The notes: generated from the letters alone by a model not told the origin. A stretch of DNA of 64,000 bases from Salinivirgaceae bacterium (GCA_024405635.1 JAKSOL010000001.1:160001-224000); one strand, 5' to 3'; shown: positions 35,468 through 54,757, counted from the first letter of the stretch. Program-made: numbers and translations.

Positions 35468-36928
35468 ATGACTAATCTTGGCAACCAAGTAGCAAGAGCA
35501 ACCAAATGGTCGGTTCTATCAGAACTGATGGCCAAACTAATTACACCAATATCTATGATGGTATTGGCTCGGGTGCTCACACCTGAAGCCTATGGCGCCA
35601 TTGCTACTACAGCAATAGTCATATCATTTGCCGAATTGTTTACCGATAGCGGATTCCCCAAATATCTTATCCAACATAATTTTCAAAGCGATGAAGAAAA
35701 GAGCGAATCTGCTAATGTTGCATTTTGGACTAATTTCTCATTGAGTCTGTTCATTTGGGGAATCATAATCATTTTCCGACATCAAATTGCAATAATTGTA
35801 GGCAGTCCTGAACTTGGCAATGCCATTGCAGTAGCTTGTATTGCAATACCAATAACGACATTTTCTAGTATTCAGATAGCATTATTCAAACGCGACCTCA
35901 ATTTTCAGCCCCTTTTCCACGCGCGAATTGTTGGCATTGTCACACCTTTTCTGTTCACAATACCATTGGCTATGTGGCTGAAGAACTATTGGGCGTTAAT
36001 AGTAGGAACAATTTTTTATCAAGTAGTTACTGCAATTATTCTTGCTATAAACTCGAAATGGCATCCGCGGCGCTATTATAGTTTCGGTAAATTGAAAGAA
36101 ATGTTGGCGTTTTGCTTTTGGATAATTACAAACGATGTGCTAACCTATTTTACTGGATACATTGACCTCTTTCTGATAAGCCAAAAATTTGATCAACATA
36201 AATTAGGCATCTACCGAACCGCAGTATCAACATCAACGCAAATAATAGCATTAGTCTCTGCTATTGTGCTACCAGTACTACTTCCTGTCTACTCCAAAAT
36301 ACAGAGCGACCATAACAAATTGCGAGAAACAATGCTGAAAATACAGAAATACTTGGGGATAATTATTCTGCCTTTGGGCTTTGGCGTTTTCTTGTACAGC
36401 GATTTGGTTACTAACTTATTACTTGGACCACAGTGGGCTGAAGCTGCTCCAATTATTGGTCTTTGGGGAATTTTGCACAGTTTTTCTTTGCTGATAAACC
36501 GCAATTGCTCAAATACTTACATTGCAATAGGGCGGCCTAAAATTTCAGTTTTATTACAAACATTATATGCGGCAGCACTAATCCCAACCATTATTATCTC
36601 ATCTAACATTAGTTTTGAAGCAGTTTACTACACCCGGGCTTTTGCAAAAGGGTGGATGATAGTACTTAACCTAATCACGATTTACATAACAATCAGACAA
36701 TCAACTATAAAAGTCATTACCAACATTTTACCAGAATTGTGGGGTTGCATTGTAATGAGTGGTGCAGCATTGTTGCTTTCGTTTTTGGGGAATAACACGC
36801 AATGGCAACTTGTATCAATATTGATATGTGGCATTGTTTACTTTGCTACAATTTGTATTTTTAAAGAAGATAGGCAAGCGTTGTCAAATATTATCCGTTA
36901 TGCAAAACAGCAAATACAAGTTAAATGA
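35468..36928 (+). CDS. Wzx-type oligosaccharide flippase (WzxC-like)
   Basis: LARVLTPE.YG, F.DSGF...LIQ, LGIY, LLG.QW; about 12 TM helices. Confidence 0.88.
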   Translation: MTNLGNQVARATKWSVLSELMAKLITPISMMVLARVLTPEAYGAIATTAIVISFAELFTDSGFPKYLIQHNFQSDEEKSESANVAFWTNFSLSLFIWGIIIIFRHQIAIIVGSPELGNAIAVACIAIPITTFSSIQIALFKRDLNFQPLFHARIVGIVTPFLFTIPLAMWLKNYWALIVGTIFYQVVTAIILAINSKWHPRRYYSFGKLKEMLAFCFWIITNDVLTYFTGYIDLFLISQKFDQHKLGIYRTAVSTSTQIIALVSAIVLPVLLPVYSKIQSDHNKLRETMLKIQKYLGIIILPLGFGVFLYSDLVTNLLLGPQWAEAAPIIGLWGILHSFSLLINRNCSNTYIAIGRPKISVLLQTLYAAALIPTIIISSNISFEAVYYTRAFAKGWMIVLNLITIYITIRQSTIKVITNILPELWGCIVMSGAALLLSFLGNNTQWQLVSILICGIVYFATICIFKEDRQALSNIIRYAKQQIQVK

Positions 36929-37983
36929 AAATAGCTATACATCATAGAGAAGGTTCGTTTAGTTCGCACTGGATTGATTACTGCCAAAGAAATGGTATCG
37001 ATTTCAAACTTGTCAATGCATACGATAACGATATTGTTAGTCAACTTGCTGACTGCAATATCTTTATGTGGCATCATCATCAATCAATATACAAAGATCA
37101 ATTATTGGCCAATCATCTCCTTCTTTCAATGCAAGGAATGGGACTGATAACATACCCTAATTTAAACACTTCATGGCATTTTGATGACAAGTTGGCTCAG
37201 CATTATCTGTTAAATTCAATTGGGGCACCAATTGTACCTACATACATATTCTTTAACAAACAAGATGCTATTGAGTGGGCTGAACAAACAACCTTTCCAA
37301 AGGTTTTTAAGTTAAAAAATGGGTCATCCTCAGCAAACGTGATGCTTGTAAAGAACTCAAAGCAGGCGCAAAGGTTGATATCAAAAGCCTTTAATAAAGG
37401 AATTCCTACATTTCGATATAAGGATAGAATAAAAGAACGTTATCGCCTATACAAAATAGGAAAAGTATCTCTCCGAAATTTACTAGGACTAGTACGAAGA
37501 GCCTTATTCCGCGTTTGTCCGGGAGAATATTTCAAATTTCACGACAAAGAATGTGGTTATGTTTATTTTCAAGACTTCATGTCATCAAAGAACTTTGACA
37601 TAAGGGTGTTGGTGATTGGCAATAAGGCAATAGCAAAGAAAAGAATAAACCGCCCTAACGATTTTCGGGCATCAGGAGGAAACAACCTGATTTTTGATAA
37701 AGAACAAATTGACGAAAAATTTGTTCAAGCAGCATTCTTGGCCAATAAATCGCTAAAAATGCAAAGTGTAGCTTTCGATTTCTTGTATGGCGAGCACGAC
37801 GAACCGCTAATTTCAGAGATAAGCTATTGCTGTGGTTACGAGTCAAACAAAGACGCACCAGGCTACTGGACTTCAGATATGCAATGGCACAAATGTTCAA
37901 ATATCAACATTTGCGATTGGATAATAGAGGAGGTTATTGCAGAGTACAAGGCAAAAGAGTCGGCAAAAGTTATTGCAGATTAG
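36925..37983 (+). CDS. RimK-like ATP-grasp ligase of polysaccharide loci
   Basis: HFDDK.AQ.Y, FPKVFKL..G.SS.NV, YFQDF...FDIRV, DFRASG, AFDF, ISEISY; 4-nt overlap with wzx. Confidence 0.8.
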   Translation: MKIAIHHREGSFSSHWIDYCQRNGIDFKLVNAYDNDIVSQLADCNIFMWHHHQSIYKDQLLANHLLLSMQGMGLITYPNLNTSWHFDDKLAQHYLLNSIGAPIVPTYIFFNKQDAIEWAEQTTFPKVFKLKNGSSSANVMLVKNSKQAQRLISKAFNKGIPTFRYKDRIKERYRLYKIGKVSLRNLLGLVRRALFRVCPGEYFKFHDKECGYVYFQDFMSSKNFDIRVLVIGNKAIAKKRINRPNDFRASGGNNLIFDKEQIDEKFVQAAFLANKSLKMQSVAFDFLYGEHDEPLISEISYCCGYESNKDAPGYWTSDMQWHKCSNINICDWIIEEVIAEYKAKESAKVIAD

Positions 37984-38184
37984 GCAGAATATAGTGTTGC
38001 TAAGGTTGCCTTTTTCTTTAAAAATGTTGCTAACGATTGCTTAATGAAAGTTACATTTGTCAAATAATTGAGCACACCACAGATAACTAAAAATGAACAA
38101 CTTAAGAATTTGTTTCTGTTTTGATGTTCAACTTAAGAGTCAAATGGCTTCTGTTTTTTTTGATTATAAGTAAAGTGAAGTAGA

Positions 38185-39195
38185 ATGAAGTTTCTAGTTA
38201 CAGGAATAGCAGGTTTTATAGGCTACCATGTCGCACGGCGATTGGTGGAGCAAGGCCATGCTGTAACTGGAATCGACAACCTTTCTGCACCGTCAGATTT
38301 AAAGTTAATGCGTTTGTCGGAATTGGGATTTGCTCAAAATCAGTTTGGTTATGGGCTGATGCATCAAAGTGCAAAGTTTGGCAACTTGAAATTTGTAGCA
38401 CTAAATATCCAAGACAGAGTTCAAATACATAATTTGTTTGCTGCAGAGCAGTTTGACAAGGTTATAAACCTAGCTGCCAAGACAGGTGTCAGAAGTTCAT
38501 TAGATTCTCATTCAGAATACATTGCGAGCAATATTGATGGGTTTTCGTGCATATTGGAAAACTGTGTAACGCATCACATTAGCCACTTTATATATGCATC
38601 GTCGAGTAGCGTTTATGGAAATAACGAAAAGGTGCCTTTTTCGGAGGACGATGCGCTGGCCAATCCTGCAAGTGTGTATGCAGTAACAAAAATTGCAAAC
38701 GAGTTACTTGCAAAAACATACTCCAACACTTATGGCTTAAAATCAACAGGGTTAAGGTTTTTTACCGTTTATGGTCCGTGGGGACGTACCGATATGGCGC
38801 CAATGCTTTTTGCTAAAGCCATTGCCGATGGCAAACCTATCAATGTTTTTAACAATGGTAATTTGTTGCGAGACTTTACTTATATCGACGACATAGTGAA
38901 TGGAGTTTGTCTTGTAGCTAATATGCAACCGCAAGACATTTCGTCACCAAATGTTTACAATATAGGTTGTTCTACTCCAGTTAAGTTGCTCAACTTTATT
39001 TCGGAATTGGAGTTGGCTATGGGACAAAAGGCTGAAATGAACATGATGCCTATGCAAGTTGGTGATGTATATCAAACTTATGCTGACACAACTGCTTTTG
39101 AACGCGATTTTGGCTATCGTCCGAAAACATCGTTAAAAGACGGTATTGCCATATTTGTAAAGTGGTTTCTTGAGTATAACAACAAGTTAGTATAG
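38185..39195 (+). CDS. NAD-dependent epimerase, UDP-glucuronate 4-epimerase-like
   Basis: VTG.AGFIG, YASSSSVYG, Y..TK.ANE, LRFFTVYGPWGR.DMA, RDFTYIDDIV; TACATTTG -7 box at 38052-38059. Confidence 0.88.
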   Translation: MKFLVTGIAGFIGYHVARRLVEQGHAVTGIDNLSAPSDLKLMRLSELGFAQNQFGYGLMHQSAKFGNLKFVALNIQDRVQIHNLFAAEQFDKVINLAAKTGVRSSLDSHSEYIASNIDGFSCILENCVTHHISHFIYASSSSVYGNNEKVPFSEDDALANPASVYAVTKIANELLAKTYSNTYGLKSTGLRFFTVYGPWGRTDMAPMLFAKAIADGKPINVFNNGNLLRDFTYIDDIVNGVCLVANMQPQDISSPNVYNIGCSTPVKLLNFISELELAMGQKAEMNMMPMQVGDVYQTYADTTAFERDFGYRPKTSLKDGIAIFVKWFLEYNNKLV

Positions 39196-39201
39196 TGTGC
39201 A

Positions 39202-40272
39202 ATGGAAGCAATTGGTGGAGCTAAACGCAAAGTCATTTTTTTCATGCCCAATAGCATGGGGGGGGCCGAGCGTGTTTCCATTACCATTGCCAAAAGTCTT
39301 GACTTGGACAAGTATGACGTACAATTTGTAGTGGTAGGTCGAAACCTTGATAAAATAGTAAACTTTATTCCTAACAAATTTAGCGTCAGACTGTTGAAGA
39401 TTCGTAATATATACGATTTTGCAATTAGTCGTTTAGTAGGATTGTTACGCAACGACAGGCCAGCCGTTGTTTTCTGTTCGTTAAATTATCTAAATGTTAG
39501 GATTATTTCGGCCGCTAGAATTGTAGGCGGAATAAAAATTGTGGTTCGTTGTAGCTCATCAATGAGCAGAAACAAATACTTGCGCTTGTTGGCAAGGTTG
39601 ACATACCGAAAGGCTGATATTGTTGTGGCACAAACCAACGAAATGCGCATTGAGATAATAAAAGATCTAAAAACTGAGCCCAATCGTGTTCAAGTGCTAC
39701 ATAATCCTATCGACAAGGAAAATATTGCCCAATTGTTGGCAAATGCGCAAAATCCTTATTCAAGCAGCAATGTTAACATAGTATCTGTAGCTCGATTTGT
39801 TGGCGTTAAGGGCATCGATACTCTAATAAATGCTTTTTCACAATTTTCGGCAGTAATTGATAATGCCAAACTATATGTTGTTGGCAATTATAATACTGAT
39901 TCAAAAGAATATATTTCAATCTTAACCCAGATAAACAAGTTGGGATTACAACAAAAGGTTCAGTTTGTGGGGCTAACAACAAATCCGTATCAGTGGATAA
40001 AATATGCCGATTGTTTTGTGTTGGCCTCGCGGCAAGAAGGGTTGCCAAACGCATTGCTTGAGGCAATATACCTTAAAACGCCAGTAGTTTGTACTTTGAG
40101 TGTTCCTATAATAAGGCAAATTGTTGAAAATGGAGTCAATGGGTACATTGTCCCAATTGACGATGTTGACGCAATGACACAAGCCATGACACAAGCCATT
40201 AAACTTGAGTCAAAAGGTTTAACTTTGTACCAATCGGCAACAACCGAACAGTTTTCGAATTTGTTTATTTGA
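39202..40272 (+). CDS. GT4 glycosyltransferase
   Basis: MGGAERV, ARF..VKG, SRQEGLPNALLEA. Confidence 0.9.
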   Translation: MEAIGGAKRKVIFFMPNSMGGAERVSITIAKSLDLDKYDVQFVVVGRNLDKIVNFIPNKFSVRLLKIRNIYDFAISRLVGLLRNDRPAVVFCSLNYLNVRIISAARIVGGIKIVVRCSSSMSRNKYLRLLARLTYRKADIVVAQTNEMRIEIIKDLKTEPNRVQVLHNPIDKENIAQLLANAQNPYSSSNVNIVSVARFVGVKGIDTLINAFSQFSAVIDNAKLYVVGNYNTDSKEYISILTQINKLGLQQKVQFVGLTTNPYQWIKYADCFVLASRQEGLPNALLEAIYLKTPVVCTLSVPIIRQIVENGVNGYIVPIDDVDAMTQAMTQAIKLESKGLTLYQSATTEQFSNLFI

Positions 40273-40275
40273 CAC

Positions 40276-41382
40276 GTGAATACGGTTTATTTCTACGGTT
40301 CATTTCCATGTAAAAAGTCATCGTTTTGTGGGGGCGGGGAGATTGGCAATTTGCGAACAGTGCAAATGTTGAGGCAATTTGGCTATAAAGTTCGAATTGT
40401 AAAGAAATACCGTTGCGGAGGAAATACAAACTCACACATTATTCGCCTGCTTACATATCCTTTTCGCTTTGCATTGAGTTTACTTCAGTTTGCATGTTTG
40501 CTCATTGTTGGCAATCACAAGGCTATGATTCACATATCAGGTTTTTATGGCAATGTGGTTTATGCTGAATATCTGTTTGTCTTGTTGTCTAAATTGTTGG
40601 GTTATAAAGTCTTATACGAGATGCGCGGAGGTGGAGCAGAGCAATTCTACACAAACGGCAATTCGTTTTATCGCCATTGTTTTAGTTTTATAGTACGTAA
40701 ATCGAGCATTATATTCTCACAAGGCATTGAAAACGAGAAGTTTTTGCGCACTATAACCAATACTCCTATATTTTACTATCCCAACTATTTGAAAACTGAT
40801 TTTTTGCCAAATAGCGTACCTGTTAAACCTGATAGTCCGTTGCATATCATATACTTAGGTCGTTTATCGCCTGAAAAGAACATTCAGTTGATAGTTGATG
40901 CAACTGCAATTCTTCAAAAGCATTTACAAGTAGATTTGACAATAGTTGGGCAAGGTGAAAAGAGATATGTTGATTCTATATGTGAGTTAATGCACAAACG
41001 GTTGAGTATCAATTCATTTACAATAATAAACGGTTCGCCGCATGATGAAGTTGGGCAATTTTTAGCCGATAAGCATTTCATCATTTTCCCATCGAAACTT
41101 GAACGCGAAGGTCAATCAAACACAATAACCGAGGCTATGGGATTTGGTATTGTTCCAATATCTAGTCCGCAAGGTTTTTCAAAAACGCTTATAGGCAACA
41201 GCAACCTTATAGTTGAAGATTTATCAGCAGAGAGTTATGCAAATAAGTTACTTGAGGTGGTTAAGTCGGGCAAGTACGAATTGCTGAGCAAGCAAATGCA
41301 CGAAAGAGTAGTAACCAACTATTCGGAAGATGTTATTAAACCAGAGGTAAAAGAACAATACGATAGACTCTTTAATTGGTGA
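40276..41382 (+). CDS. GT4 glycosyltransferase
   Basis: GTG start; GRLSPEKN, FPS..REGQSNTITEAM. Confidence 0.85.
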   Translation: MNTVYFYGSFPCKKSSFCGGGEIGNLRTVQMLRQFGYKVRIVKKYRCGGNTNSHIIRLLTYPFRFALSLLQFACLLIVGNHKAMIHISGFYGNVVYAEYLFVLLSKLLGYKVLYEMRGGGAEQFYTNGNSFYRHCFSFIVRKSSIIFSQGIENEKFLRTITNTPIFYYPNYLKTDFLPNSVPVKPDSPLHIIYLGRLSPEKNIQLIVDATAILQKHLQVDLTIVGQGEKRYVDSICELMHKRLSINSFTIINGSPHDEVGQFLADKHFIIFPSKLEREGQSNTITEAMGFGIVPISSPQGFSKTLIGNSNLIVEDLSAESYANKLLEVVKSGKYELLSKQMHERVVTNYSEDVIKPEVKEQYDRLFNW

Positions 41383-41433: not shown

Positions 41434-41469
41434 AAAAAAAAGAGATGCATTGTTTTGCATCTCTTTTTT
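41434..41469. terminator. Bidirectional intrinsic terminator
   Basis: AAAAAAAGAGATGCA-ttgttt-TGCATCTCTTTTTT. Confidence 0.85.
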
Positions 41470-41497: not shown

Positions 41498-42247
41498 CTA
41501 ACGGCCAAGCAAACTTAGTACGCCATTGATAAAAGCCAAAGGATGCACAGGGTTGCCTGGAATATAAAGGTCCACTTTGTGGTTTGCAAGAAACGAGCGG
41601 TCGAGAGCTGGGCTATCGGCAAAAATACCACCACTAATGGCATCAACGCCAGCTAAAATCAATAGTTTTGGATCGGGTGTTGCATCAAAACATATTTCAA
41701 GAGCTTCGGCCATGTTTTTACTTATTGGGCCCGTAACAACAATGCCATCGGCATGGCGAGGTGAGGCAACAAAATCGATACCAAAACGTCCCATGTCAAA
41801 GTTTACGTTGCTAGTTGCGTTAAGTTCCCACTCGCAGCTGTTGTCGCCAGCGGCTGATACCTCGCGCAATTTTAGCGAGCGACCATAAATGCGGCGAATC
41901 TCGGCACGTACTTTATCGGCATCAACCAAAATTGGGCTGTCGTTGCCTTCGGTTACAATAAGGTTCTCGCGAATGTTTGAGCCCATTTTGTAATCTTTAG
42001 TGAATTTGATTTTTTCGGGGCAAGCAAAAGCGCACTCGCCGCAAAATGTGCAACGGCCAAGGTCGATGCGCAAAGGCGAACCGCTGATGGCGCCGGTTGG
42101 ACACAAATCGATAAGCGATTTTTCGTCGCAAGGAGCATTAGATATGACAGGGCGTCCACGAAAAACGCCAGGAACATCGGTTGTTTTAACATCTGGAATA
42201 AATTGTTTTCCCTGATGTATTAATATCTTCATATTATCGAATATCAT
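41498..42247 (-). CDS. Ehr complex small subunit: ferredoxin domain fused to NuoB/HycG-like domain (degenerate Fe-S ligands)
   Basis: CTFCGECAFACP; RFGIDFVASPRHADG.VVTGP; but GDNSC, GVDAISGG and IPGNPVHP in place of the Cys motifs. Confidence 0.85.
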   Translation of the reverse strand: MIFDNMKILIHQGKQFIPDVKTTDVPGVFRGRPVISNAPCDEKSLIDLCPTGAISGSPLRIDLGRCTFCGECAFACPEKIKFTKDYKMGSNIRENLIVTEGNDSPILVDADKVRAEIRRIYGRSLKLREVSAAGDNSCEWELNATSNVNFDMGRFGIDFVASPRHADGIVVTGPISKNMAEALEICFDATPDPKLLILAGVDAISGGIFADSPALDRSFLANHKVDLYIPGNPVHPLAFINGVLSLLGR

Positions 42248-42284
42248 AACTGGTAGATATTTAGTTGTTTATTCGTCAGTTATA

Positions 42285-43784
42285 TTAAAGGTCGTGACCG
42301 CTATATGATAGGTCGAAACTTTTGTTGCAGATTGGGAAATCGGAAATCTCGTTATTGCGAACAGCTAATGCCAATCCAAGCCAGTTGTGGAACGATGGGT
42401 CTTTAACCTTGTAGTGGGTCAAATCGCCGTCGGGGCCGGTAATTGCGCAATGGCAAATTTCGCCACGCCAACCTTCAACCAACGAAACCACAAACGAGTT
42501 TGGTTCTGCCTTGTCAAGTGTTGTGGCTGGTTTGTGGTCGTATGGCATTGTGCTTAAGATGTCGTTCATCATGTCAATTGAGCGAAGAATTTCGTCGTAA
42601 CGGATGCGAGCGCGGCAATAAACGTCGCCAACAGGTTCTAACACAGGTTTGTAGTCAATGTTAGCATAGTGGCCAAATGGGTGAGATGCTCTAATATCGC
42701 GAACTATGTTGCTTGCGCGAGCAGCCATTCCAACCATACCTATTTGGTGTGCCACAGCAGGCGACACAATGCCAGTGCGTTCAATACGCGACAATACCGA
42801 AGGCAAATCAAATGTTTGCTCGGCCATTTCAACAAAGTGAGGTTTGTAGGCTGATATCATCTCTTTCCATTGTGCTGCAAGGTCGTTGGTGAAAGGGAAG
42901 TTGGTTTTGCCAGGGCGAATAAGACCCTTTGCAAAACGGTTGCCTGCCCAACGTTGGAAATAGTTGATGACTGGTGTGCGCAAGCGTCCAAATACCGAGT
43001 TACCAAGTTGATATGCAATGTCGGTGCAGATGCCGCTCAAATCGCCAGTATGTATTGCAATGCGTTCATTTTCAATAGCAAACGCACGTTCCATTTGCAA
43101 TTGTTTATCGGCAGTGAAACCGCAAAGGCTTTCCCAAGCGTTGGCAAAAGCTACCGAATGACCAACAGTTGTATCGCCTGTAATGTTTTCGGCCAATGTT
43201 GCTCGTTGTAGCAGTTTTTTCTTCTCAATCATCAAGGTCTCAAGTCCGCGGTGCTGATAGCCAAGTTGAATTTCAAGATGCAGAATTTGCTCGCCATTGC
43301 AAATAAAGCGGAAGTGTCCGGGCTCAATTATTCCGGCGTGTATTGGACCTACACCAACTTCGTGAAGTTCTTCGCTATCGATTTGGTAAAATGGGTAATT
43401 AACCATTGTTTGCGACTTGTCGGCAGCATTGTATGGGTAGCGAACAGGTTTTAGCCAAGGGTGCCCATCGAAGTTGATTCCAAAATTCTCGTGAATCTCG
43501 CGCTCAAACAAATGGAACGACATGTATTTAGCCGTTATTGACTGTAGAGTGTCGGTTTTGCTCACAACCGATGAAAGTACATTGATGCTTGCTGAAGCAT
43601 CGTCGGCTATGCAACACAAAAGTTGAACATTGTTTTCTGCAGGAATGCCAAAATAGCTAACGCAATGGGCTTCTGGCTTTTCCATTAGCTGGTTGGTAAC
43701 TACATTGAAGAAGTCGGCGTAAGCCAAAACTGGAATTTCGGCAAACTTAATGCGCTGATTGTTTTTTATGCTAATAAAGTCCAT
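42285..43784 (-). CDS. Ehr complex large subunit (HycE/NuoC+D-like, no NiFe ligands)
   Basis: FEREIHE.FG..F.GHP, VGPIHAGIIEPGHFRF, LGYQHRG.E, VEGWRGE, KDPSF.NW; ENITGD and SFDLSYSGHDL replace the CxxC motifs. Confidence 0.88.
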   Translation of the reverse strand: MDFISIKNNQRIKFAEIPVLAYADFFNVVTNQLMEKPEAHCVSYFGIPAENNVQLLCCIADDASASINVLSSVVSKTDTLQSITAKYMSFHLFEREIHENFGINFDGHPWLKPVRYPYNAADKSQTMVNYPFYQIDSEELHEVGVGPIHAGIIEPGHFRFICNGEQILHLEIQLGYQHRGLETLMIEKKKLLQRATLAENITGDTTVGHSVAFANAWESLCGFTADKQLQMERAFAIENERIAIHTGDLSGICTDIAYQLGNSVFGRLRTPVINYFQRWAGNRFAKGLIRPGKTNFPFTNDLAAQWKEMISAYKPHFVEMAEQTFDLPSVLSRIERTGIVSPAVAHQIGMVGMAARASNIVRDIRASHPFGHYANIDYKPVLEPVGDVYCRARIRYDEILRSIDMMNDILSTMPYDHKPATTLDKAEPNSFVVSLVEGWRGEICHCAITGPDGDLTHYKVKDPSFHNWLGLALAVRNNEISDFPICNKSFDLSYSGHDL

Positions 43785-43788
43785 TGCA

Positions 43789-45216
43789 TTAAAGAGTTAA
43801 TAGTTGAACGGCTTCATTTATCAAGTTCACAAAGAAATCGGGTGGGCAAATGCCAAGGTAAACAGTTAGTAGCAAAAGAATGTATTGCGAAACTGTTTCA
43901 ACACAACTTGGTTTTGTAATGTTGCTTGCGTCAAAGCCATCAACAGGTGTAAAGAGCATTTTGAAGATGTTTTTGCCAAGCGCCCAAATGATAAATGTGA
44001 GCATTATTAGTACTGGTACCAAAACATAAATGTAGTTGGCAGCAAATAGCGATTTAAACACAAGAAACTCGCTGACAAACAAGCCTGAAGGTGGCATGGC
44101 TGTTACACACACAAAGGCGAGCAAAAGAAATACAGCGCCGGGTGTGTTGTATGTGAAATAGTTGCCTATTTGATATATGTCTTTGGTTTTGAAAACCATA
44201 TACAAATGTCCAATTTGCATGAATAGCGATGACTTAGCAAAAGTGTGAAGCACTAAATGAAGAATGGCTGCATAGTAGCCAATTCCACCAGCTGCAAGAC
44301 CAAGTGCCACAACGCCCATGTGCTCAATACTTGAGTAGGCCAACATGCGTTTCACATTCTTAACCTTAAGCAGATAAACGGTTGCTACAAAAATTGATAG
44401 CACTGCCGAAATTATCATTACGTGACTTGCCCACGATTGAACTTGTGTATGAGTAAGAATTTGGTAGAAACGGAATACTCCAACAAATCCCACGTTCATA
44501 AGAACGCTTGAGAATAGTCCAGCTGCTGGAGTTGGTGCCTTGTCTTTGGCATCGATACCTGCTGTGTACATTGGAACTAGACCAAACTTGGCTGTGTAGC
44601 CCGAAAAGATGAACACAAAGGCAAGTTTGAGCCAAAAGGTGTCAAGCTTTGGTGCAATTTGTGTCAACGAATCATAGGTAAGGTTTGTTTCTGCAACACT
44701 GCCTAGTGCAATACTGAGGAACAAAATGCCGATGAACACAAACACAAGGCTTATTGAGCAAACAAAAATGTATTTCCATGTAGCCTCAATTGAACCAGCG
44801 CTACGTCGGTGATAAACCAATGCAGAAGCACTTAAGGTTGTTATCTCAACAAAAATCCAAGTAACTGCAATGTGCGACGATAGGTAAGCCATCGATAGCG
44901 CCATTACCAACAACACCATTGCGCCATAGTATATGCCGCGTGTACGAGGGGTTTCGGTTTCGGCATAAATGTAATCGTAGCGGTGGAATAGGGCAGGAAT
45001 GCTTACAATGGTTAAAACTAACAAAAGCAACAAACCCAGTGAGTCCATTTTGAAATACAACAAGTTTTCGCCTTTTGCCATAAACGACATGTAGGTAAAA
45101 GCGCACTGCAATACCACAAACAAGGCAACCATTGCATTGTTTAGAGACTTGTTTTTGTTGGCAAACAAAAGTAACGCCAACACAAGCGAAATAACGAAAT
45201 ATGCTATTACTGTCAT
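43789..45216 (-). CDS. HyfF-like antiporter-type membrane subunit
   Basis: WIFVE.TTL.SA.LV, EATWKY, K.GLVP, KRMLAYSS.EHMG, PPSG.FVSEF. Confidence 0.88.
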   Translation of the reverse strand: MTVIAYFVISLVLALLLFANKNKSLNNAMVALFVVLQCAFTYMSFMAKGENLLYFKMDSLGLLLLLVLTIVSIPALFHRYDYIYAETETPRTRGIYYGAMVLLVMALSMAYLSSHIAVTWIFVEITTLSASALVYHRRSAGSIEATWKYIFVCSISLVFVFIGILFLSIALGSVAETNLTYDSLTQIAPKLDTFWLKLAFVFIFSGYTAKFGLVPMYTAGIDAKDKAPTPAAGLFSSVLMNVGFVGVFRFYQILTHTQVQSWASHVMIISAVLSIFVATVYLLKVKNVKRMLAYSSIEHMGVVALGLAAGGIGYYAAILHLVLHTFAKSSLFMQIGHLYMVFKTKDIYQIGNYFTYNTPGAVFLLLAFVCVTAMPPSGLFVSEFLVFKSLFAANYIYVLVPVLIMLTFIIWALGKNIFKMLFTPVDGFDASNITKPSCVETVSQYILLLLTVYLGICPPDFFVNLINEAVQLLTL

Positions 45217-45229
45217 AACTTCAATACGT

Positions 45230-45859
45230 TTAATCTTTCAAACTACTCAATTGGTTTACATCGCCATCGTTTATTACGTTACCCACCTTGTTAATGAAGA
45301 TGCCAAGAAGGAATACGCTTACAAACACATCGAGCAATACACCAAGGTTAACCAAAAGTGGCATTTCGTTGCCCACTGCAAGCGACAAGATGAATACACC
45401 GTTCTCAATAAGTACGTAACAAATAACATGGGTAATAATCTTTTTGCGGGTAACTATTAAGAATAGTCCGCAGAAAAGTGCCGACAACGCAGTAACAAAA
45501 TATATCTTGTTTAGATGTACTGCCTCAATCAAGTTCGACAATACGAATGTTAGCACAATAATCATTGTTGTAACAAGCAACGATACAAAGTAAGGTACAA
45601 ATGGTTCGGCCTCACGTTTTATCTTGTTTTTCTTTATTACATAACGAATGAAAAGTGGAAGAACAATGGCTTTTACAATCAAGGTCTCAAGAATGATGAA
45701 CGCAAAGTTGAGCACGTTCATATCGTGTAACTCAAGTAATGCCACAAGCATTAGCAACACACCTTGAAACGATAAAATCGACAAGTACGTCATCAACCTG
45801 TTGGCAATTGAAAAGTACAACAGCGTGATGGCAAAGATTATCAGAAGTATATTGGTCAT
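45230..45859 (-). CDS. HyfE-like membrane subunit
   Basis: QG.LL, K.IVLP, RE.EP, ENG.F, GVLLDV, L..LKD. Confidence 0.85.
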   Translation of the reverse strand: MTNILLIIFAITLLYFSIANRLMTYLSILSFQGVLLMLVALLELHDMNVLNFAFIILETLIVKAIVLPLFIRYVIKKNKIKREAEPFVPYFVSLLVTTMIIVLTFVLSNLIEAVHLNKIYFVTALSALFCGLFLIVTRKKIITHVICYVLIENGVFILSLAVGNEMPLLVNLGVLLDVFVSVFLLGIFINKVGNVINDGDVNQLSSLKD

Positions 45860-45889: not shown

Positions 45890-46780
45890 TTAGCTCATTA
45901 GTACTCCAAAGAGCATTAGCAATGCCAACGATGATAGCGCAAGTATGAATTGCGCATTGTTGCCCATGCGGAAGCGAGCCATAAACGACTCGATGATACC
46001 AGCCACAATGGCAAGCAAAAATTGTATGCCGAAGAATACTGGAATTGAAACGTATAGCGGCCAGTTGCCAATAAATAGGTTGGCTATGAGTGCTCCATAC
46101 ATTGCAAACTTGAGGTTGGTGGCTTGCAAAATAAGTCCAAGGTCAAAACCGCTATTGTCCAAAATCATCACCTCGTGAATCATTGTCAACTCAAGGTGAG
46201 TTTTTGGGTCGTCAATAGGCATGCGGCTGTTTTCAATCATACATATCATAATGAGCACAAAACACGCAATGGTAACAAGCGCATACGAAAGGTACGAGCC
46301 AATGTGCAGATTCATAAATATGTCGTGAAACGAGGTGTTGCCTGTTAAAAGACCAAGCGAGCCCATAAGAATGAAGAACGCAGGCTCGGCAAGCATTGAG
46401 AAAAGCGCCTCGCGGCTAGCTCCCATGCCCTCAAAACTGCTGCCAGTGTCGAGCGCTGCTATTATGCTAAAAAACTTGCCCAATGCCAAAACGTAGGCAA
46501 AAAACACAAAGTCGCACGAAAACGACACCAAACCTTTTTGCGATCCTAGCGGAACAACCATCATTGCCGCAAGTATTGATGCAAAATAGATTGATGGTGC
46601 AATTTGGAAAATATCGCTTGATGTGTTGCTATATACAGCACCTTTGCGCAACGACCTCCAAATGTCTTTCATTGGCTGCATTATGCCTGGCCCCTTTCGC
46701 CCCGATGCAAGGCTCTTGGTGCGAACAACAATACCTGTGAAAAACAAGCTTGCAATGAAAATTAGTACAAAACTCAACAT
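45890..46780 (-). CDS. HyfC/HycD (NuoH-like) membrane subunit
   Basis: GRKGP...QP..D, ALDTGSSFEGMGASRE, EN.RMP.DDP.THLELTMIHE.M. Confidence 0.9.
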   Translation of the reverse strand: MLSFVLIFIASLFFTGIVVRTKSLASGRKGPGIMQPMKDIWRSLRKGAVYSNTSSDIFQIAPSIYFASILAAMMVVPLGSQKGLVSFSCDFVFFAYVLALGKFFSIIAALDTGSSFEGMGASREALFSMLAEPAFFILMGSLGLLTGNTSFHDIFMNLHIGSYLSYALVTIACFVLIMICMIENSRMPIDDPKTHLELTMIHEVMILDNSGFDLGLILQATNLKFAMYGALIANLFIGNWPLYVSIPVFFGIQFLLAIVAGIIESFMARFRMGNNAQFILALSSLALLMLFGVLMS

Positions 46781-46782
46781 TA

Positions 46783-48804
46783 CTATAATGTATTTAGATA
46801 ATTGATAAACAATCTGATAAGCTTAAACATAAATGGAACGCCAGCAATGAGTATGATGAAGAACATTCCGTAGAATATGTAGAACTGTAAACGGCCGTTT
46901 TGCATGATTGAAAAATGACTCAAAAGTCGTCTAATCATGCGCAAAGGTTTAATAATTAAACCTGTTTCGGTGCGGTCAAGGGCTTCGGTTGCATACTCGG
47001 CTTTGCCGGGGAATATGCCTTCTACATCAATCTTGCGTTTTTTAACTTGTAAAACCGATTTTGCCAAACGTCGGTAACTTCTTACAAACGAACTTGCTGT
47101 GTATTGAATTTTGGGAGTAGGGGCCAAATAACCACAACCCCATGTTTCGCCTTTCGATTCGGGCAAATGCGATGTAAACCAACGGCGTAGGCCATAAACA
47201 ACTGCAGCAATGCCGATAAACACCAGCATGTAGATGCCAATTGCACTGAGAGTAGTAACCGCCTGAAATGATTCGCCAGTAGCATTATTGCCAACAAACT
47301 GTTGCAATGCGCCATTAAGCGCACCAATAAAGAACTTTGGTGCAATACCTATGGCTACAATCATGCCTCCTGCCATATACATTGGAAACAAACGTACAAA
47401 TCCAAATTCTTTAGGCTCGCTGTGAAGTTTTGCGCGTGGTTGTCCAAGGAAAATTGTTCCAAAGGCTTTGGTGAAGCACATTATGGCCAATCCGCCTATT
47501 AGCGCCAAACCTGCCATTGATAATGCCAAAGCAACTGTTCGGCCCGAACCTTGAATGCTGTTGATGCCATCAAACAAACCATTGTATATCAAGAATTCTG
47601 ATACAAAACCATTGAAAGGTGGCAGTCCGCAAATAGCAAGACTTGCCAAAAGAAAGAGCATTGCAGTTTGTGGCATTTTACGTATAAGTCCGCCAAAGTG
47701 TTCAATGTCCATGCAATGTGTGGCTTGATATACATTGCCAGCACCGTAGAAAAGTAGCGATTTGAATAGTGAGTGGTTGAGAACGTGAAGCAATGCGCCT
47801 GCAAAACCAATTATTGCCAACGAATTATTGTTGCAACCAAGAGCAATACATCCAACTCCAATGCCAATACCAATAATGCCAATGTTTTCAACACTATGGT
47901 AAGCCAAAAGTCGTTTCAAATTATGCTGAATAATGGCAAGCATCACACCATAAATTCCTGTTACAACTGAAATGATAAGGATGAAAAATCCCATAACCAT
48001 ATAGTTGACATTGATAATGAGCAACATGCGCATTATTCCGTATATGCCTATTTTGATTAGTACACCCGACATCATGCCCGAAACGTGCGATGGTGCAGCT
48101 GGATGTGCATGTGGCAACCAAGTGTGGAAGGGTACAAAACCTGCTTTGAAGGCAAAACCAACAAAAAATAAAAGCATCAGCCCTAAACTAGCCAAACGCG
48201 ATTGTTGACTAACAAACTGCATTATGCCATCAAACGAGTAAGTGCCCGATACTATGGCTACCCAAATGAATGCCACTGTAAGTAAAAGAATGGCCAAATG
48301 CGACTGAATTAAATAGTTGATTCCCGCACGAATGGTGCGAACTTTTTCTCGTTCAAAAATCACAAGGAAGAATGCTCCAAGTGCCATAATCTCCCACGAA
48401 ATGAGAAATCCAATGCTGTTGCGCATTGCACAAACCGACATCAGTCCCGCATGAACTAGTAAATAACATATCCAATGCAAACTCAGTTCATTGCGGCTAT
48501 CGGCATAGGCATTCATGTACTGCTGTCCGTAAATAACGCTTGTTATCATTGTGAAACTAATGACAAGCATAAACCACGCCGACAATGGATCTATCTCCAT
48601 GCCGATTGGTCCTGTTACATACGAACCTGCAAAATTGTATGTGTGTGTGTTTCCTATTAGTGCGTCAACCGCTGGTACTGCACTTATTGCCGCCATTGCA
48701 ACTATTCCGTAAATAGCAACAATTCCCTTTGTGCGAGGTGCAACAATGCTCACAACAACTGCTGCGAGCAACAAAACCAACAAGTAAACGCCTACAAGCA
48801 TCAT
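46783..48804 (-). CDS. HyfB/HycC-like antiporter-type subunit (paralogue 2)
   Basis: WEIMAL, KAGFVPFHTWLPHAHPAAPSHVSG, KRLLAYHSVENIGI, PPFNGFVSE, TWGCGY. Confidence 0.9.
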   Translation of the reverse strand: MMLVGVYLLVLLLAAVVVSIVAPRTKGIVAIYGIVAMAAISAVPAVDALIGNTHTYNFAGSYVTGPIGMEIDPLSAWFMLVISFTMITSVIYGQQYMNAYADSRNELSLHWICYLLVHAGLMSVCAMRNSIGFLISWEIMALGAFFLVIFEREKVRTIRAGINYLIQSHLAILLLTVAFIWVAIVSGTYSFDGIMQFVSQQSRLASLGLMLLFFVGFAFKAGFVPFHTWLPHAHPAAPSHVSGMMSGVLIKIGIYGIMRMLLIINVNYMVMGFFILIISVVTGIYGVMLAIIQHNLKRLLAYHSVENIGIIGIGIGVGCIALGCNNNSLAIIGFAGALLHVLNHSLFKSLLFYGAGNVYQATHCMDIEHFGGLIRKMPQTAMLFLLASLAICGLPPFNGFVSEFLIYNGLFDGINSIQGSGRTVALALSMAGLALIGGLAIMCFTKAFGTIFLGQPRAKLHSEPKEFGFVRLFPMYMAGGMIVAIGIAPKFFIGALNGALQQFVGNNATGESFQAVTTLSAIGIYMLVFIGIAAVVYGLRRWFTSHLPESKGETWGCGYLAPTPKIQYTASSFVRSYRRLAKSVLQVKKRKIDVEGIFPGKAEYATEALDRTETGLIIKPLRMIRRLLSHFSIMQNGRLQFYIFYGMFFIILIAGVPFMFKLIRLFINYLNTL

Positions 48805-48805
48805 A

Positions 48806-50788
48806 CTATAGCCAATTGAATAATGAGCAAATTAATACCGCAATAACAAAACCAAGTCCGTACAAAATGTATTGTTGAAGTTGTCCGTTTTGAATAAACT
48901 GAAACTTGTTAAGCAATTCAACCCACTTTGTTAAAATGCCATTGAAAATGCGAATCTCAAAGAAATCGGAGTAGTGCGAAACATATTGGCGTTCTTTTGG
49001 AAATACTTCACCCTCAACAAGTTCGTCATATTCTTTCTTCTCAACCAATACGCCACCCAATAACTTGCCAAGTGTTTTTGAATATGACTTTCCAGTGTAT
49101 TGAATGCTCGATTTAGGTGCAAGGTATCCGCAGCCCCATGTTGGACCAACCGACGATGGTTGACGTGATGTGAGCCAAAAACGAATGGCCAAAACCACTC
49201 CAATTATGCCCAAGAACAACAAAGAGTAACGACCTATTGATGTCATTGCTCCAACAACACCAACTGGAACCGCTGCAACTTGCGCCCCAATTAATGTTGA
49301 CACAACTTGTTGTGCCGCACCAATATAAAACGAAGGTACCAAAGCAACGCTCATCATTACCACTATAATAATATATTGTGGTAAGCGCATCAAAATTGGA
49401 ACTTCAACTGGCTCGCTATGCAGATGCGAACGGCGTTGACCAAGAAATATAACGCCAAAGCACTTTGTGAATGCCATTACCGATGCTCCTCCAATAATTG
49501 AAAGCGTTGCAATGGAAAGAATCATCATTATTGAATGTAGCATTCCTGCGTTGTTCAAACCGTAAAATAGTCCCGAATAAATAACAAATTCCGACACAAA
49601 TCCGTTGAATGGTGGCATGCCGCCAATGGCAAGCGCTCCAATAAGAAATATAAAGGCCGACTTTGGCATTTGCTTAATAAGTCCGCCAAGTTTTTCCATG
49701 TCGCGGGTGTGTGTCTGCTGATAAATTGAGCCCGACGTAAAGAACAAAAGTGATTTGAAAAGCGAGTGGTTTAGTACGTGCAATAATGCGCCCACAAAAC
49801 CAATCATTGTAATAATTGGATTTTGAAGCCCAAGACCAATAAGTCCAAGTCCAAGACCAATGCCTATAATACCAATATTCTCAATAGTGCAATAAGCCAA
49901 CACTCGTTTAAAATCGCGGTGTACAGCCGAGTTTACAATTCCAAAAATGCCAGTGAGCAACGATATTGATAAAAGAACTTTGCCAATTAGCATATAGTCG
50001 GTCTGAAGATACGCTATCACTCTAATTATTCCGTAGATGCCCATCTTGACAATCACACCCGACATAACACCCGAAACGTGCGAAGGGGCAGCAGGGTGAG
50101 CGTGTGGCAACCATGAGTGCAATGGAATAAAACCTGCTTTTATGCCAAAACCGATAAACAAAAGCAAGAATAACCAAACGTTGCTATTGCCTGCAAAGAA
50201 TGTTCCTATTGCAGACATATCAAGCGAACCGGTTTTTAAATACACCCAAATGAAAGCAACAGTTAAAAATGCCACACCCAAGTGCATTTGTATCATATAG
50301 TTCAAACCTACTTTTTGTGTGTCTTCGCGCTCGCTTTCAAACATCACTAGCAACAGCGATGATAAAGACATTAATTCCCAAGCTACAAGAAACGCCAACA
50401 TGTTTTGCAACATGCACACCCACAACATCGACGATTGAAACACCATAAAATAAATCCAATGCAGTGTCAATGCGCTCTTGCGTTCGCTGTATGCACGCAT
50501 GTAACCAATGCCGTAGGCTGCACCTGTCAAGCATGTAAAATTTACAATCAAAATAAACCAAGCCGACAAAGCATCAACACGAACAGCAACATCACCAAAA
50601 ATTGGTAATGTGGCCACGATATTGTCAATTGGATTGCCAAGCAAAACTCCAACTGCTGCCATTGAGCTGAATACGCCAACGGCAAAAACGGCTAACAGAT
50701 TGAGCCACGGCTTGATACGTGATGGCGCTAACGATACAAACAATATGCCTAATACCAACGCTAATGCCGAAAAAATAATGTCTGTCAT
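48806..50788 (-). CDS. HyfB/HycC-like antiporter-type subunit (paralogue 1)
   Basis: WELMSL, KAGFIPLHSWLPHAHPAAPSHVSG, KRVLAYCTIENIGI, PPFNGFVSE, TWGCGY. Confidence 0.9.
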   Translation of the reverse strand: MTDIIFSALALVLGILFVSLAPSRIKPWLNLLAVFAVGVFSSMAAVGVLLGNPIDNIVATLPIFGDVAVRVDALSAWFILIVNFTCLTGAAYGIGYMRAYSERKSALTLHWIYFMVFQSSMLWVCMLQNMLAFLVAWELMSLSSLLLVMFESEREDTQKVGLNYMIQMHLGVAFLTVAFIWVYLKTGSLDMSAIGTFFAGNSNVWLFLLLFIGFGIKAGFIPLHSWLPHAHPAAPSHVSGVMSGVIVKMGIYGIIRVIAYLQTDYMLIGKVLLSISLLTGIFGIVNSAVHRDFKRVLAYCTIENIGIIGIGLGLGLIGLGLQNPIITMIGFVGALLHVLNHSLFKSLLFFTSGSIYQQTHTRDMEKLGGLIKQMPKSAFIFLIGALAIGGMPPFNGFVSEFVIYSGLFYGLNNAGMLHSIMMILSIATLSIIGGASVMAFTKCFGVIFLGQRRSHLHSEPVEVPILMRLPQYIIIVVMMSVALVPSFYIGAAQQVVSTLIGAQVAAVPVGVVGAMTSIGRYSLLFLGIIGVVLAIRFWLTSRQPSSVGPTWGCGYLAPKSSIQYTGKSYSKTLGKLLGGVLVEKKEYDELVEGEVFPKERQYVSHYSDFFEIRIFNGILTKWVELLNKFQFIQNGQLQQYILYGLGFVIAVLICSLFNWL

Positions 50789-50826: not shown

Positions 50827-51084
50827 TAGATTATGCAGCTAAATTGTACCGAAAATAATGCTAAAAATTTAGGCTTTTTCAACGGCATTTTCAAAGCCCA
50901 AAACTCATTGGCTTTTTGTGACTTCTGAACTTGTATGAACTGCCTTTTTGATACTTTAAATTTATCGCTTAACATGTTCAATTTAATCAAGCTTGCAATT
51001 GTTAAAAAACCGTGAAAAAATGGAACATATTCCTACCGTTGGTCAGCACTTTTAGGCTTTATTTTGCATTAAATGACTAATTGT

Positions 51085-52029
51085 ATGGCAAACGAACAGG
51101 TTAAACTACTTATAATAGGTTCAGGTCCAGCAGGTTATACAGCTGCAATTTATGCGTCACGAGCAAATTTATCGCCAGTTTTGATTGAAGGTTTGCAAGT
51201 GGGCGGACAACTAACCACAACAACCGACATTGAAAACTTTCCTGGTTACCCAAACGGCATCTCGGGTGCCGAAATGATGGAAGACCTTCGTCGTCAAGCT
51301 GAACGCTTTGGTACCGAAATGCGCTTTGGTATGGTTACTAGTGTCGATTTTTCGGGCGATAAAAAACTGGTCACAGTTGATGGCGATAAACTGATTGAGG
51401 CTGAGGCTGTTATTGTTGCTACTGGCGCAACTGCAAAATATCTGGGCTTGCCCTCCGAGGCTAAATTCCGCGGCAGTGGTGTTTCGGCTTGTGCTACTTG
51501 CGATGGCTTTTTTTACCGCAAAAAAGATGTAGCAGTAGTTGGCGGCGGCGATACCGCTTGCGAAGAAGCTACCTATCTGGCCCATTTATGCAACAAAGTA
51601 TATCTTATTGTACGCAAAGATGCATTACGAGCTTCAAAAGCAATGCAACAACGCGTGTTCAACACTCCTAACATCGAAGTGCTGTTTGAGCATAACACAT
51701 TGGAACTAACTGGTACCGATGTGGTTGAGGGCGCCCGTTTGGTATTTCGACAAGGCACTGCCGACGAGCAAATTCGCGACATTAAAATCGACGGCTTTTT
51801 CCTCGCAATTGGCCACAAACCAAACAGCGATGTGTTTGCTAAATACCTTGATACCGACGATGCTGGATACATTAAAACAATAGCAGGTACTTCAAAAACC
51901 AATGTGACAGGCGTGTTCGCTTGTGGCGATGTGCAAGATCCGCGCTACCGTCAAGCTATTACAGCCGCAGGTTCGGGATGCAAGGCTGCTCTCGATGCTG
52001 AACAATATATTCTTTCACGAAACGATTAA
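51085..52029 (+). CDS. trxB: Thioredoxin-disulfide reductase
   Basis: IIGSGPAGYTAA, GGQL..T, SACATCDG, GGGDTACEEA, RQAITAAG.G. Confidence 0.96.
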   Translation: MANEQVKLLIIGSGPAGYTAAIYASRANLSPVLIEGLQVGGQLTTTTDIENFPGYPNGISGAEMMEDLRRQAERFGTEMRFGMVTSVDFSGDKKLVTVDGDKLIEAEAVIVATGATAKYLGLPSEAKFRGSGVSACATCDGFFYRKKDVAVVGGGDTACEEATYLAHLCNKVYLIVRKDALRASKAMQQRVFNTPNIEVLFEHNTLELTGTDVVEGARLVFRQGTADEQIRDIKIDGFFLAIGHKPNSDVFAKYLDTDDAGYIKTIAGTSKTNVTGVFACGDVQDPRYRQAITAAGSGCKAALDAEQYILSRND

Positions 52030-54740: not shown

Positions 54741-54757
54741 CCTATTAAAAAACAAAT

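Follow-up and report, generated by a model that had tools for sequence, protein, structure and literature searches.

Ehr complexes are defined by the missing cysteines of the NiFe site, and their function is called unknown or is guessed at in the excerpts of the literature on which we rely here (PMC6349859, PMC10284858, PMC7304191, PMC7894505, PMC10432482, PMC3569383, PMC4758237). The complex of Geobacter sulfurreducens encoded by GSU0739-0745 (EhrA-1, EhrC, EhrL, EhrS and others; excerpt of PMC7894505) has the same gene set as the operon considered here and a large subunit free of NiFe cysteines, and the Ehr clade specific to the Candidate Phyla Radiation likewise lacks them, according to an excerpt of Jaffe et al. 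(2020, PMC7304191). Our operon lies in a 64,000-nucleotide stretch of the genome of a Salinivirgaceae bacterium (GCA_024405635.1, JAKSOL010000001.1:160001-224000; hereafter the window, with positions counted from its first letter), and the gene under study, at 41498-42247 on the minus strand, encodes the small subunit. By its motifs and the literature definition, we assign this subunit to a cluster-depleted Ehr complex, which descends from the group 4 membrane hydrogenases and is related to complex I. The seven open reading frames (ORFs) of the operon include, according to Pfam and NCBIfam, genes for antiporter-like, NuoH-like, HyfE-like, large and small subunits, and the NiFe cysteines are missing. 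An initial inspection of the DNA (the sequence-only reading) had proposed an undescribed system; this proposal is not borne out in that form, as the Ehr family itself is already known and is named in excerpts of PMC6349859, PMC7894505 and PMC3569383. What is new is that Ehr forms with three, two and one cluster and the same large-subunit pocket coexist in one phylum, and that carboxylates replaced the proximal cysteines on at least two occasions, with two or three acidic residues in 18 of the 19 cysteine-poor representatives. Compared with the three-cluster Ehr forms of the same phylum, the small subunit described here lacks the ligands of both the proximal and the distal cluster and carries Asp, Cys, Asp and Asn (D/C/D/N) at the proximal site. 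In the open full-text literature we found no paper on the loss of cluster ligands from the small subunit, nor do the excerpts cited above speak of it; Marreiros et al. (2013) and Coppi (2005) may bear on it.

Among solved structures, Escherichia coli formate hydrogenlyase/Hyf (7Z0S: HycC, HycD, HycE, HycF and HycG) is the best match for four subunits of the operon, with E values of 9.9e-39 for the large subunit, 5.2e-60 and 2.1e-56 for the HyfB-like subunits and 3.2e-19 for the NuoH-like subunit; for the small subunit, HycG ranks second among the matches (8e-19), and the EPGHFR motif of HycE is shared by the large subunit. In contrast to formate hydrogenlyase, the operon lacks the NiFe cysteines as well as the ligands of the proximal and distal clusters, its HycF-like and HycG-like parts are fused, and HypD (PF01924), the mark of Hyp maturation, was not found in the host genome (2.66 Mb, scored 99.8% complete). 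The NuoB-like domain of the small subunit is matched best by MbhJ of the Pyrococcus furiosus MBH (6CFW; E 2.7e-23), while MbhH of the same complex and MbsH of MBS (6U8Y) match the antiporter-like subunits. MBH and MBS retain three [4Fe-4S] clusters, whereas the small subunit here has ligands for one. With complex I (Thermus thermophilus, 2FUG/4HEA) the operon shares the module architecture, the Lys/Glu set of the antiporter-like subunits and the NuoH-like subunit, but its small subunit has no N2 site and no NCBIfam Nuo model reaches its cut-off. Mrp antiporters (6Z16, 7QRU) are matched through MrpA/MrpD-like subunits at E values of 1e-30 to 1e-36, and the redox-free translocation proposed below is the mode of Mrp. 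Mrp is not known to have a NuoB/NuoD/NuoC/NuoI-like peripheral arm or an iron-sulfur (Fe-S) cluster, whereas the Ehr operon does encode a peripheral arm, NuoC/D-like and NuoI/B-like.

The small subunit is a fusion of half of a HycF/NuoI ferredoxin domain with a HycG/NuoB domain, as seen in Pfam and PDB alignments. Its parts are the following.

41498-42247, minus strand: EhrS-type small subunit, 249 amino acids (ORF; PF01058 and PF00037; PDB alignments)
42008-42142, minus strand: ferredoxin-like remnant, residues 36-80 (column counts, codon positions, alignment to the second NuoI motif)
42101-42103, 42050-42052, 42041-42043 and 42032-42034, minus strand: invariant ligands C49, C66, C69 and C72, respectively (column counts)
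42128-42130 and 42020-42022, minus strand: C40 and C76, cysteines of a subclade only (column counts)
41834-41845, minus strand: D135-N-S-C138, replacing the CxxC of the proximal cluster (PDB alignment, column counts)
41642-41644, minus strand: D202, replacing the third proximal-cluster Cys, that of GxCA (PDB alignment, column counts)
41552-41554, minus strand: N232, replacing the fourth proximal-cluster Cys, that of PGCP (PDB alignment, column counts)

Pfam places Oxidored_q6 (PF01058) at residues 137-245 (E 1.7e-18) and Fer4 (PF00037) at residues 60-78, and no NCBIfam model reaches its curated cut-off on this protein (80.1 bits against 116 for the NuoB subfamily). Ligand positions were mapped by HMMER alignment to solved structures. 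In both P. furiosus MbhJ (6cfw_J) and E. coli HycG (7z0s_G), D135 and C138 stand opposite the CxxC cysteines, D202 opposite that of GxC and N232 opposite that of PGCP; the two adjacent cysteines of T. thermophilus Nqo6 (2fug_6) fall opposite S137-C138. The four cysteines of a NuoB/HycG N2 or proximal cluster are thus represented by D135, C138, D202 and N232, within the motifs DNSC (135-138), GVDA (200-203) and PGNP (230-233), and the flanking motifs FVASPRHAD, TPDPK and YIPGxP are retained. In the ferredoxin part, residues 59-99 match the second CxxCxxCxxxCP motif of E. coli NuoI together with its C-terminal tail, and the motif itself reads CTFCGECAFACP at residues 66-77. Motif 1 of NuoI/HycF is shrunk to C40-x8-C49-P50, so that two complete CxxCxxCxxxCP motifs are not present, and the TIGR01971 score, 32 bits, falls short of the cut-off (113); C40 and C76, too, are gone in most relatives.

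A ferredoxin fold of the 2x[4Fe-4S] type draws the ligands of one of its clusters from both motifs, the fourth Cys of motif 1 joining the first three cysteines of motif 2. C49, C66, C69 and C72 are exactly these residues, and the small subunit therefore holds a full ligand set for one [4Fe-4S] cluster and for no other, the distal and proximal ligands being missing; C40 and C76 are remnants of the second ferredoxin cluster, confined to the subclade of the window. The retained cluster presumably is the medial, N6b-type neighbour of N2, by comparison with the structure of T. thermophilus Nqo9. The sequence-only reading had recognised the loss of three of the four proximal cysteines, the good conservation of the residues around them and the capacity for a single 4Fe-4S cluster, all of which the translation and the alignments bear out. 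Its description of the ferredoxin motifs, an intact motif 2 and a reduced motif 1, holds for this protein, except that C76 (16/120 homologues) and C40 (12/120) stand outside the invariant set. One minor discrepancy concerns residue 224 (...ANH(K/I)VDL...), which is Lys in the translation of the window and Ile in the cluster representative P0001, the window's own protein at an identity rounded to 100%.

As to conservation, the protein counts refer to the best 120 homologues (68-100% identity to the small subunit) of 7999 proteins with E<=1e-5, and the genomic counts to 81 copies, namely the window and 80 related loci, kin within which are not independent of each other. D135, D202 and N232 are present in all 120 homologues and C138 in 119; in the genomic copies D135 and N232 are again invariant (81/81), D202 is found in 80 (Glu once) and C138 in 79 (Thr twice). 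The ligands C49, C66, C69 and C72 each occur in 120/120 homologues and 78/81 copies, the three other rows being gapped. Position 76 is mostly Phe in the homologues (88) and Cys in 24 of the genomic copies; position 40 is mostly Val (74) and Cys in 13 copies. At the replaced sites both synonymous codons are in use throughout the 81 copies (GAC 51/GAT 30 for the first, TGC 48/TGT 31, GAT 55/GAC 25 and AAC 42/AAT 39 for the following ones), and the ratio of nonsynonymous to synonymous substitution rates (dN/dS, Nei-Gojobori) has a median of 0.05 and a range of 0.014-0.19 over the 66 of 3240 pairs with 0.05<dS<1.5, the remaining pairs being saturated or near-identical. Given this near-universality, the synonymous turnover and the low median dN/dS, D/C/D/N is a selected signature of the clade under strong purifying selection and neither chance nor decay. 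Both questions had been raised at the outset, and the answers favour a conserved clade signature over strain-specific degradation.

In an even sample of the phylum, a fused small subunit was found (E<=1e-40) in 21 of 401 genomes and 18 of 180 genera, and 19 operons fetched from this sample were scored at six ferredoxin-domain and four proximal positions. Thirteen of them have Cys at all ten positions (the three-cluster form); two (L099, L101) have lost the distal ligands and kept the proximal site along with the medial one; four have lost both distal and proximal ligands. The NiFe cysteines are missing from every one of the 19 large subunits, which have D204, T/S205, S493 and G496 in common (the last two positions being excluded for L088). 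Since this holds whatever the number of clusters, the loss of the NiFe site would have preceded that of the clusters. When strict thresholds are applied, positions 135, 202 and 232 alone separate 84 one-cluster from 15 CCCC sequences. Compensating changes were not identified: relaxed thresholds yield many clade-specific positions, which are indistinguishable from shared ancestry.

A broader sample was obtained from representatives at 50% identity (3796 with E<=1e-3), of which the best 150 were aligned, giving 106 gapless rows, 67 of them CCCC. In a quick maximum-likelihood tree built from 60 full-length rows, the forms with D..D/E at the first and third positions appear in two places, the first being the clade of the window, including DTDN and DNDH, and the second a distant group of DVDS, DIDD and DDDS sequences nested among CCCC forms (supports 96 and 99). 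Forcing all 13 D..D/E rows into a single clade costs 114 log-likelihood units (approximately unbiased test, p 0.0003); the group tested was defined after inspection of the tree, and the trait columns were kept, which can only draw the D..D/E forms together. The tree thus indicates at least two origins of the carboxylate replacement. Of the gapless representatives, 19 have no more than one Cys at the four positions; among these, two acidic residues are found in 14 cases, three in four and one in a single case (HREA), and no acidic replacement is seen in any of the 20 gapless rows retaining two or three Cys. In one of the operons (L088, G382:C11) the small subunit reads S-D-D-N, the carboxylate sitting at the second ligand position instead of the first. 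Coordinated by four thiolates, a [4Fe-4S]2+/1+ core bears a net charge of 2-/3-, and the acidic replacements read as conserving the net charge of the lost cluster. This pattern reads either as structural and electrostatic compensation or as a cation/proton site, which the data do not separate.

Seven genes run in the same direction, all with intact ORFs, and the small-subunit gene closes the series. The other features of the operon are listed below.

48806-50788, minus strand: HyfB-like antiporter-like subunit 1, 660 amino acids, with the canonical Glu/Lys/His set; missing in six-gene relatives (alignment, family counts)
46783-48804, minus strand: HyfB-like antiporter-like subunit 2, 673 amino acids, with the canonical Glu/Lys/His set (Pfam, NCBIfam, alignment)
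45890-46780, minus strand: NuoH/HycD-like membrane subunit, 296 amino acids, with the loop RMP[VIL]DDPKTHLEL (Pfam, alignment, family counts)
45230-45859, minus strand: HyfE-like membrane subunit, 209 amino acids (NF008556 at E 6.7e-16, below its cut-off; PF00420 weak)
43789-45216, minus strand: HyfF-like antiporter-like subunit, 475 amino acids, with Asn at the Lys position of transmembrane segment (TM) 8 (Pfam, NCBIfam, alignment)
42285-43784, minus strand: EhrL-type large subunit, 499 amino acids, a fusion of NuoC-like and NuoD/HycE-like parts (PF00329, PF00346, alignment to HycE, 7z0s_E)
41436-41469, minus strand: terminator-like hairpin with a 14-pair stem and a T run, 29 bases past the small-subunit stop (such sites are no more frequent region-wide than in shuffled sequence)

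In the large subunit, the positions of the NiFe cysteines are occupied by T202, T205, S493 and G496 (alignment to 7z0s_E). It reads ENITGDT for RxCGxC and DLSYSG for DPCxxC, and so lacks the motifs of a group 4 [NiFe]-hydrogenase; the Arg of RxCGxC is N200, and EPGHFR is retained. A quinone site of the NuoD type is not recognisable either: His38 and Tyr87 of T. thermophilus Nqo4, the quinone ligands of complex I, are matched by I153 and G203. The segment opposite Nqo4 His169 to Arg174 bears the conserved residues R283, K286 and R290, the last of which is invariant in the one-cluster clade (71/71) and variable in the CCCC forms; His169 is the hydrogen-bond partner of N2. In the membrane arm, both HyfB-like subunits retain the TM5 Glu, the Lys-Pro-His-Trp of TM7, the TM8 Lys, the His/Lys motif of TM11 and the TM12 Glu, by comparison with MbhH and HycC, and thus have the TM5 Glu, TM7 Lys, TM8 Lys and TM12 Lys/Glu expected of MrpA/D-like subunits. 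In their family the TM7 and TM12 motifs are found in 73/73 and the TM11 motif in 71/73 sequences. In the HyfF-like subunit the TM5 Glu, TM7 Lys and TM12 Glu are in place and the His-x-Trp of TM7 is altered, and the loop between TM5 and TM6 of the NuoH-like subunit, RMP[VIL]DDPKTHLEL, is present in all 55 sequences of the family. Judged by these residues, the membrane arm looks functional.

We suppose that the complex is a redox-independent ion translocator. The arguments are as follows. In complex I, N6b and N2 are about 10.5 Å apart edge to edge and N2 lies about 12 Å from the quinone site, the physiological limit for tunnelling being about 14 Å. If the retained cluster is the medial, N6b-type one, it would be too distant from the large-subunit pocket to pass electrons there, and the ancestral wire would be cut on both sides; the complex would then no longer couple electron transfer to the movement of ions, because its cluster is out of reach of the pocket. 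The former proximal site is refilled by the conserved carboxylate pair D135/D202 together with C138 and N232, and the two carboxylates may replace the anionic cluster both structurally and electrostatically. With the wire cut, translocation would have to be redox-independent: the three antiporter-like subunits, the HyfE-like and the NuoH-like subunit could be driven by ion gradients or interconvert them as Mrp does. The peripheral arm would then form a cap or a coupling element, and the lone cluster would be structural or a redox/oxygen gate. We hold this explanation, a broken wire with carboxylates standing in and ions moved without redox drive, to be the best one overall, with moderate confidence.

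Several observations weigh against it. The lone cluster is invariant, which one would hardly expect of a purely structural relic and which may indicate that redox still counts. In the one-cluster clade the large subunit has acquired conserved cysteines (C41, C57, C253, C444 and C446), and the three-cluster relatives share the pocket of this subunit, which may accordingly catalyse a redox reaction, the one-cluster forms perhaps being fed otherwise. The HyfF-like subunit has Asn for the conserved TM8 Lys, and simple Na+/H+ exchangers are already encoded in the host genome, by two PF00999 genes and an NhaC-like one. Structures of complex I, rather than a model of the small subunit, underlie both the N6b assignment and the argument from distance. 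Finally, the role of Ehr is stated as unknown in excerpts of PMC7894505 and PMC10284858.

The Asp/Cys/Asp/Asn pocket might instead be a functional cation site, for Mg2+, Ca2+, Na+, Mn2+ or Fe2+, in which ion binding or protonation replaces cluster reduction as the charge trigger of complex-I-type coupling, or regulates it. The four positions meet at one point in all solved homologues, as they are the ligands of a single cubane. Two or three carboxylates recur in 18 of the 19 cysteine-poor representatives, with at least two origins; their partners (Asn, His, Ser, Thr, Cys) are typical metal ligands, and the loss of the RxCGxC Arg in the large subunit (N200) would leave excess negative charge. 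The non-carboxylate partners, however, vary widely and include Ile, Val and Ala, which is unusual for a specific metal site, and R290, R283 and K286 of the large subunit could simply form salt bridges with the aspartates. Such a site is possible but, on this balance, rather unlikely. Its stronger version, in which a cation or proton at D135/D202 would do what the reduction of cluster and substrate does in complex I and membrane hydrogenases, so that ions and not electrons drive or gate a complex-I-type conformational machine, a solution with at least two origins, appears to us more doubtful still.

It may also be that the complex is still a redox enzyme, whose lone cluster trades electrons with a soluble partner and hands them to a new acceptor or cofactor site formed, for example, by C253, C444 and C446 and perhaps C138. 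We regard this as improbable to about the same degree as the cation site. The ligands of the lone cluster are invariant; C253, C444 and C446 are cysteines in the one-cluster clade and Ala, Val or other residues in the CCCC relatives, whose large subunits mostly retain only C162 and C486, and the conserved His of RGxxxH has C444-H445-C446 beside it. In 51 of 68 sequences of the DCDN type, cysteine is present at each of the seven positions scored in the large subunit. Nevertheless, DTDN variants lack C138 and have all the large-subunit cysteines, Pfam and NCBIfam recognise no Fe-S or other cofactor motif in the large subunit, and a conserved partner gene was not found near the operon in 81 loci.

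The sequence-only reading had also considered an unusual cluster at the old proximal site. C138 is retained in 79 of 81 copies, and single Asp ligands to [4Fe-4S] clusters occur in other proteins; on the other hand, we know of no precedent for cluster ligation by two Asp and one Asn, only one thiolate remains here, and sister forms (DTDN, DNDH, DVDS, DIDD, DDDS) have no Cys at any of the four positions. A non-canonical cluster with Asp/Asn/Cys ligation seems very improbable. Recent decay of a dying gene is refuted, with practically no probability left to it, by the constancy of the four residues among the homologues, the median dN/dS of 0.05 with synonymous turnover at all four codons and the wide occurrence of encoded relatives described below; the seven intact ORFs and the contigs of two metatranscriptome libraries on the operon also speak against it.

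At the level of the host genome, a profile search gave the small subunit as the only PF01058 match, no second gene of this family being found, and the only three PF00361 matches all lie in the Ehr operon, which is therefore the sole complex-I-like module of this genome. FeFe hydrogenase was not found in the genome, and two PF03116 genes of the Rnf/Nqr type are present. The idea that Ehr fills the role of a missing Na+/H+ antiporter was rejected in view of the PF00999 and NhaC-like genes and allows no inference; NhaA was not found in the host genome. Ordinary NuoB genes, one or two in number, accompany the Ehr gene in four of five other carriers; in the fifth the Ehr gene is the only one. In a one-genome-per-species collection at least 602 stretches were matched and at least 578 of them encode a relative, both peptide patterns used in the search themselves containing the signature (GD[NG]S[CT]E and GNP). 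Among the matches listed, the nearest relatives are rumen 'Salinivirgaceae' metagenome-assembled genomes (82-83% identity), and further ones bear labels such as Prolixibacteraceae, Marinilabiliaceae, Lentimicrobiaceae, Rikenellaceae, Saprospiraceae and Paludibacter. The cultivable, harmless Labilibaculum antarcticum has a small subunit of 71% identity. Bacteroidota-type Ehr genes also turned up in bins labelled Pseudobutyrivibrio (L020), Bifidobacteriaceae (L041) and 'delta proteobacterium' (L036), which are probably mis-binned or mislabelled contigs.

Contigs from two metatranscriptome runs of two studies fall on the operon at 95-100% identity and cover 23 of 30 bins (X7) and 8 of 30 bins (X11). 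They give a hint of transcription, carry-over of DNA being possible in metatranscriptome libraries; uncovered bins carry no meaning.

The one-cluster Ehr would thus be a complex-I-like machine kept under strong selection after its electron wire was cut. Ehr complexes are widespread, and the one-cluster form is the sole such machine in some gut Bacteroidales (the host genome and one of the five other carriers). It poses a testable question, namely whether the antiporter-like modules and coupling loops of the complex I superfamily can work without redox chemistry and, if so, what substitutes for the charge signal of the last cluster. The series of three-, two- and one-cluster forms in one phylum offers natural controls for biochemistry and cryo-electron microscopy.

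The gene order of the operon is kept across related loci, with one or two HyfB-like genes. In some of them (L077, L028, L020, and also L041, L063 and L072) the genes of the large and small subunits stand apart from the membrane genes and are followed by a dihydrouridine synthase gene. A soluble two-gene module was considered for L077, L028 and L020 and discarded: an Ehr-type NuoH-like gene (71-73% identity) sits on another contig or far off in the same genomes, and the operon is therefore split. The spacer of 37 bases between the large- and small-subunit genes varies among strains, three other runs having a 4-base insertion (TCGA) at 42279 relative to the window.

Beyond the operon, clustering of all flanking ORFs against each other revealed no gene family common to more than 7 of the 81 loci, and the search for a conserved partner gene ended there, the Pyr_redox_2 and glycosyltransferase neighbours being unconserved. 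The Pyr_redox_2 gene adjoining the operon (51073-52029, plus strand) is transcribed divergently from it and encodes a protein of 318 amino acids resembling thioredoxin reductase (TrxB) and FNR; it was rejected as an electron partner, being found beside the operon in none of the 80 related loci. It is followed on the same flank (52032-55771, plus strand) by genes for a CBM20-GH77 4-alpha-glucanotransferase and a lipid A acyltransferase. On the other flank (35468-41382, plus strand) lies a polysaccharide-synthesis block with a flippase-like ORF of 486 amino acids, an epimerase-like ORF and two glycosyltransferase-like ORFs, all named by eye.

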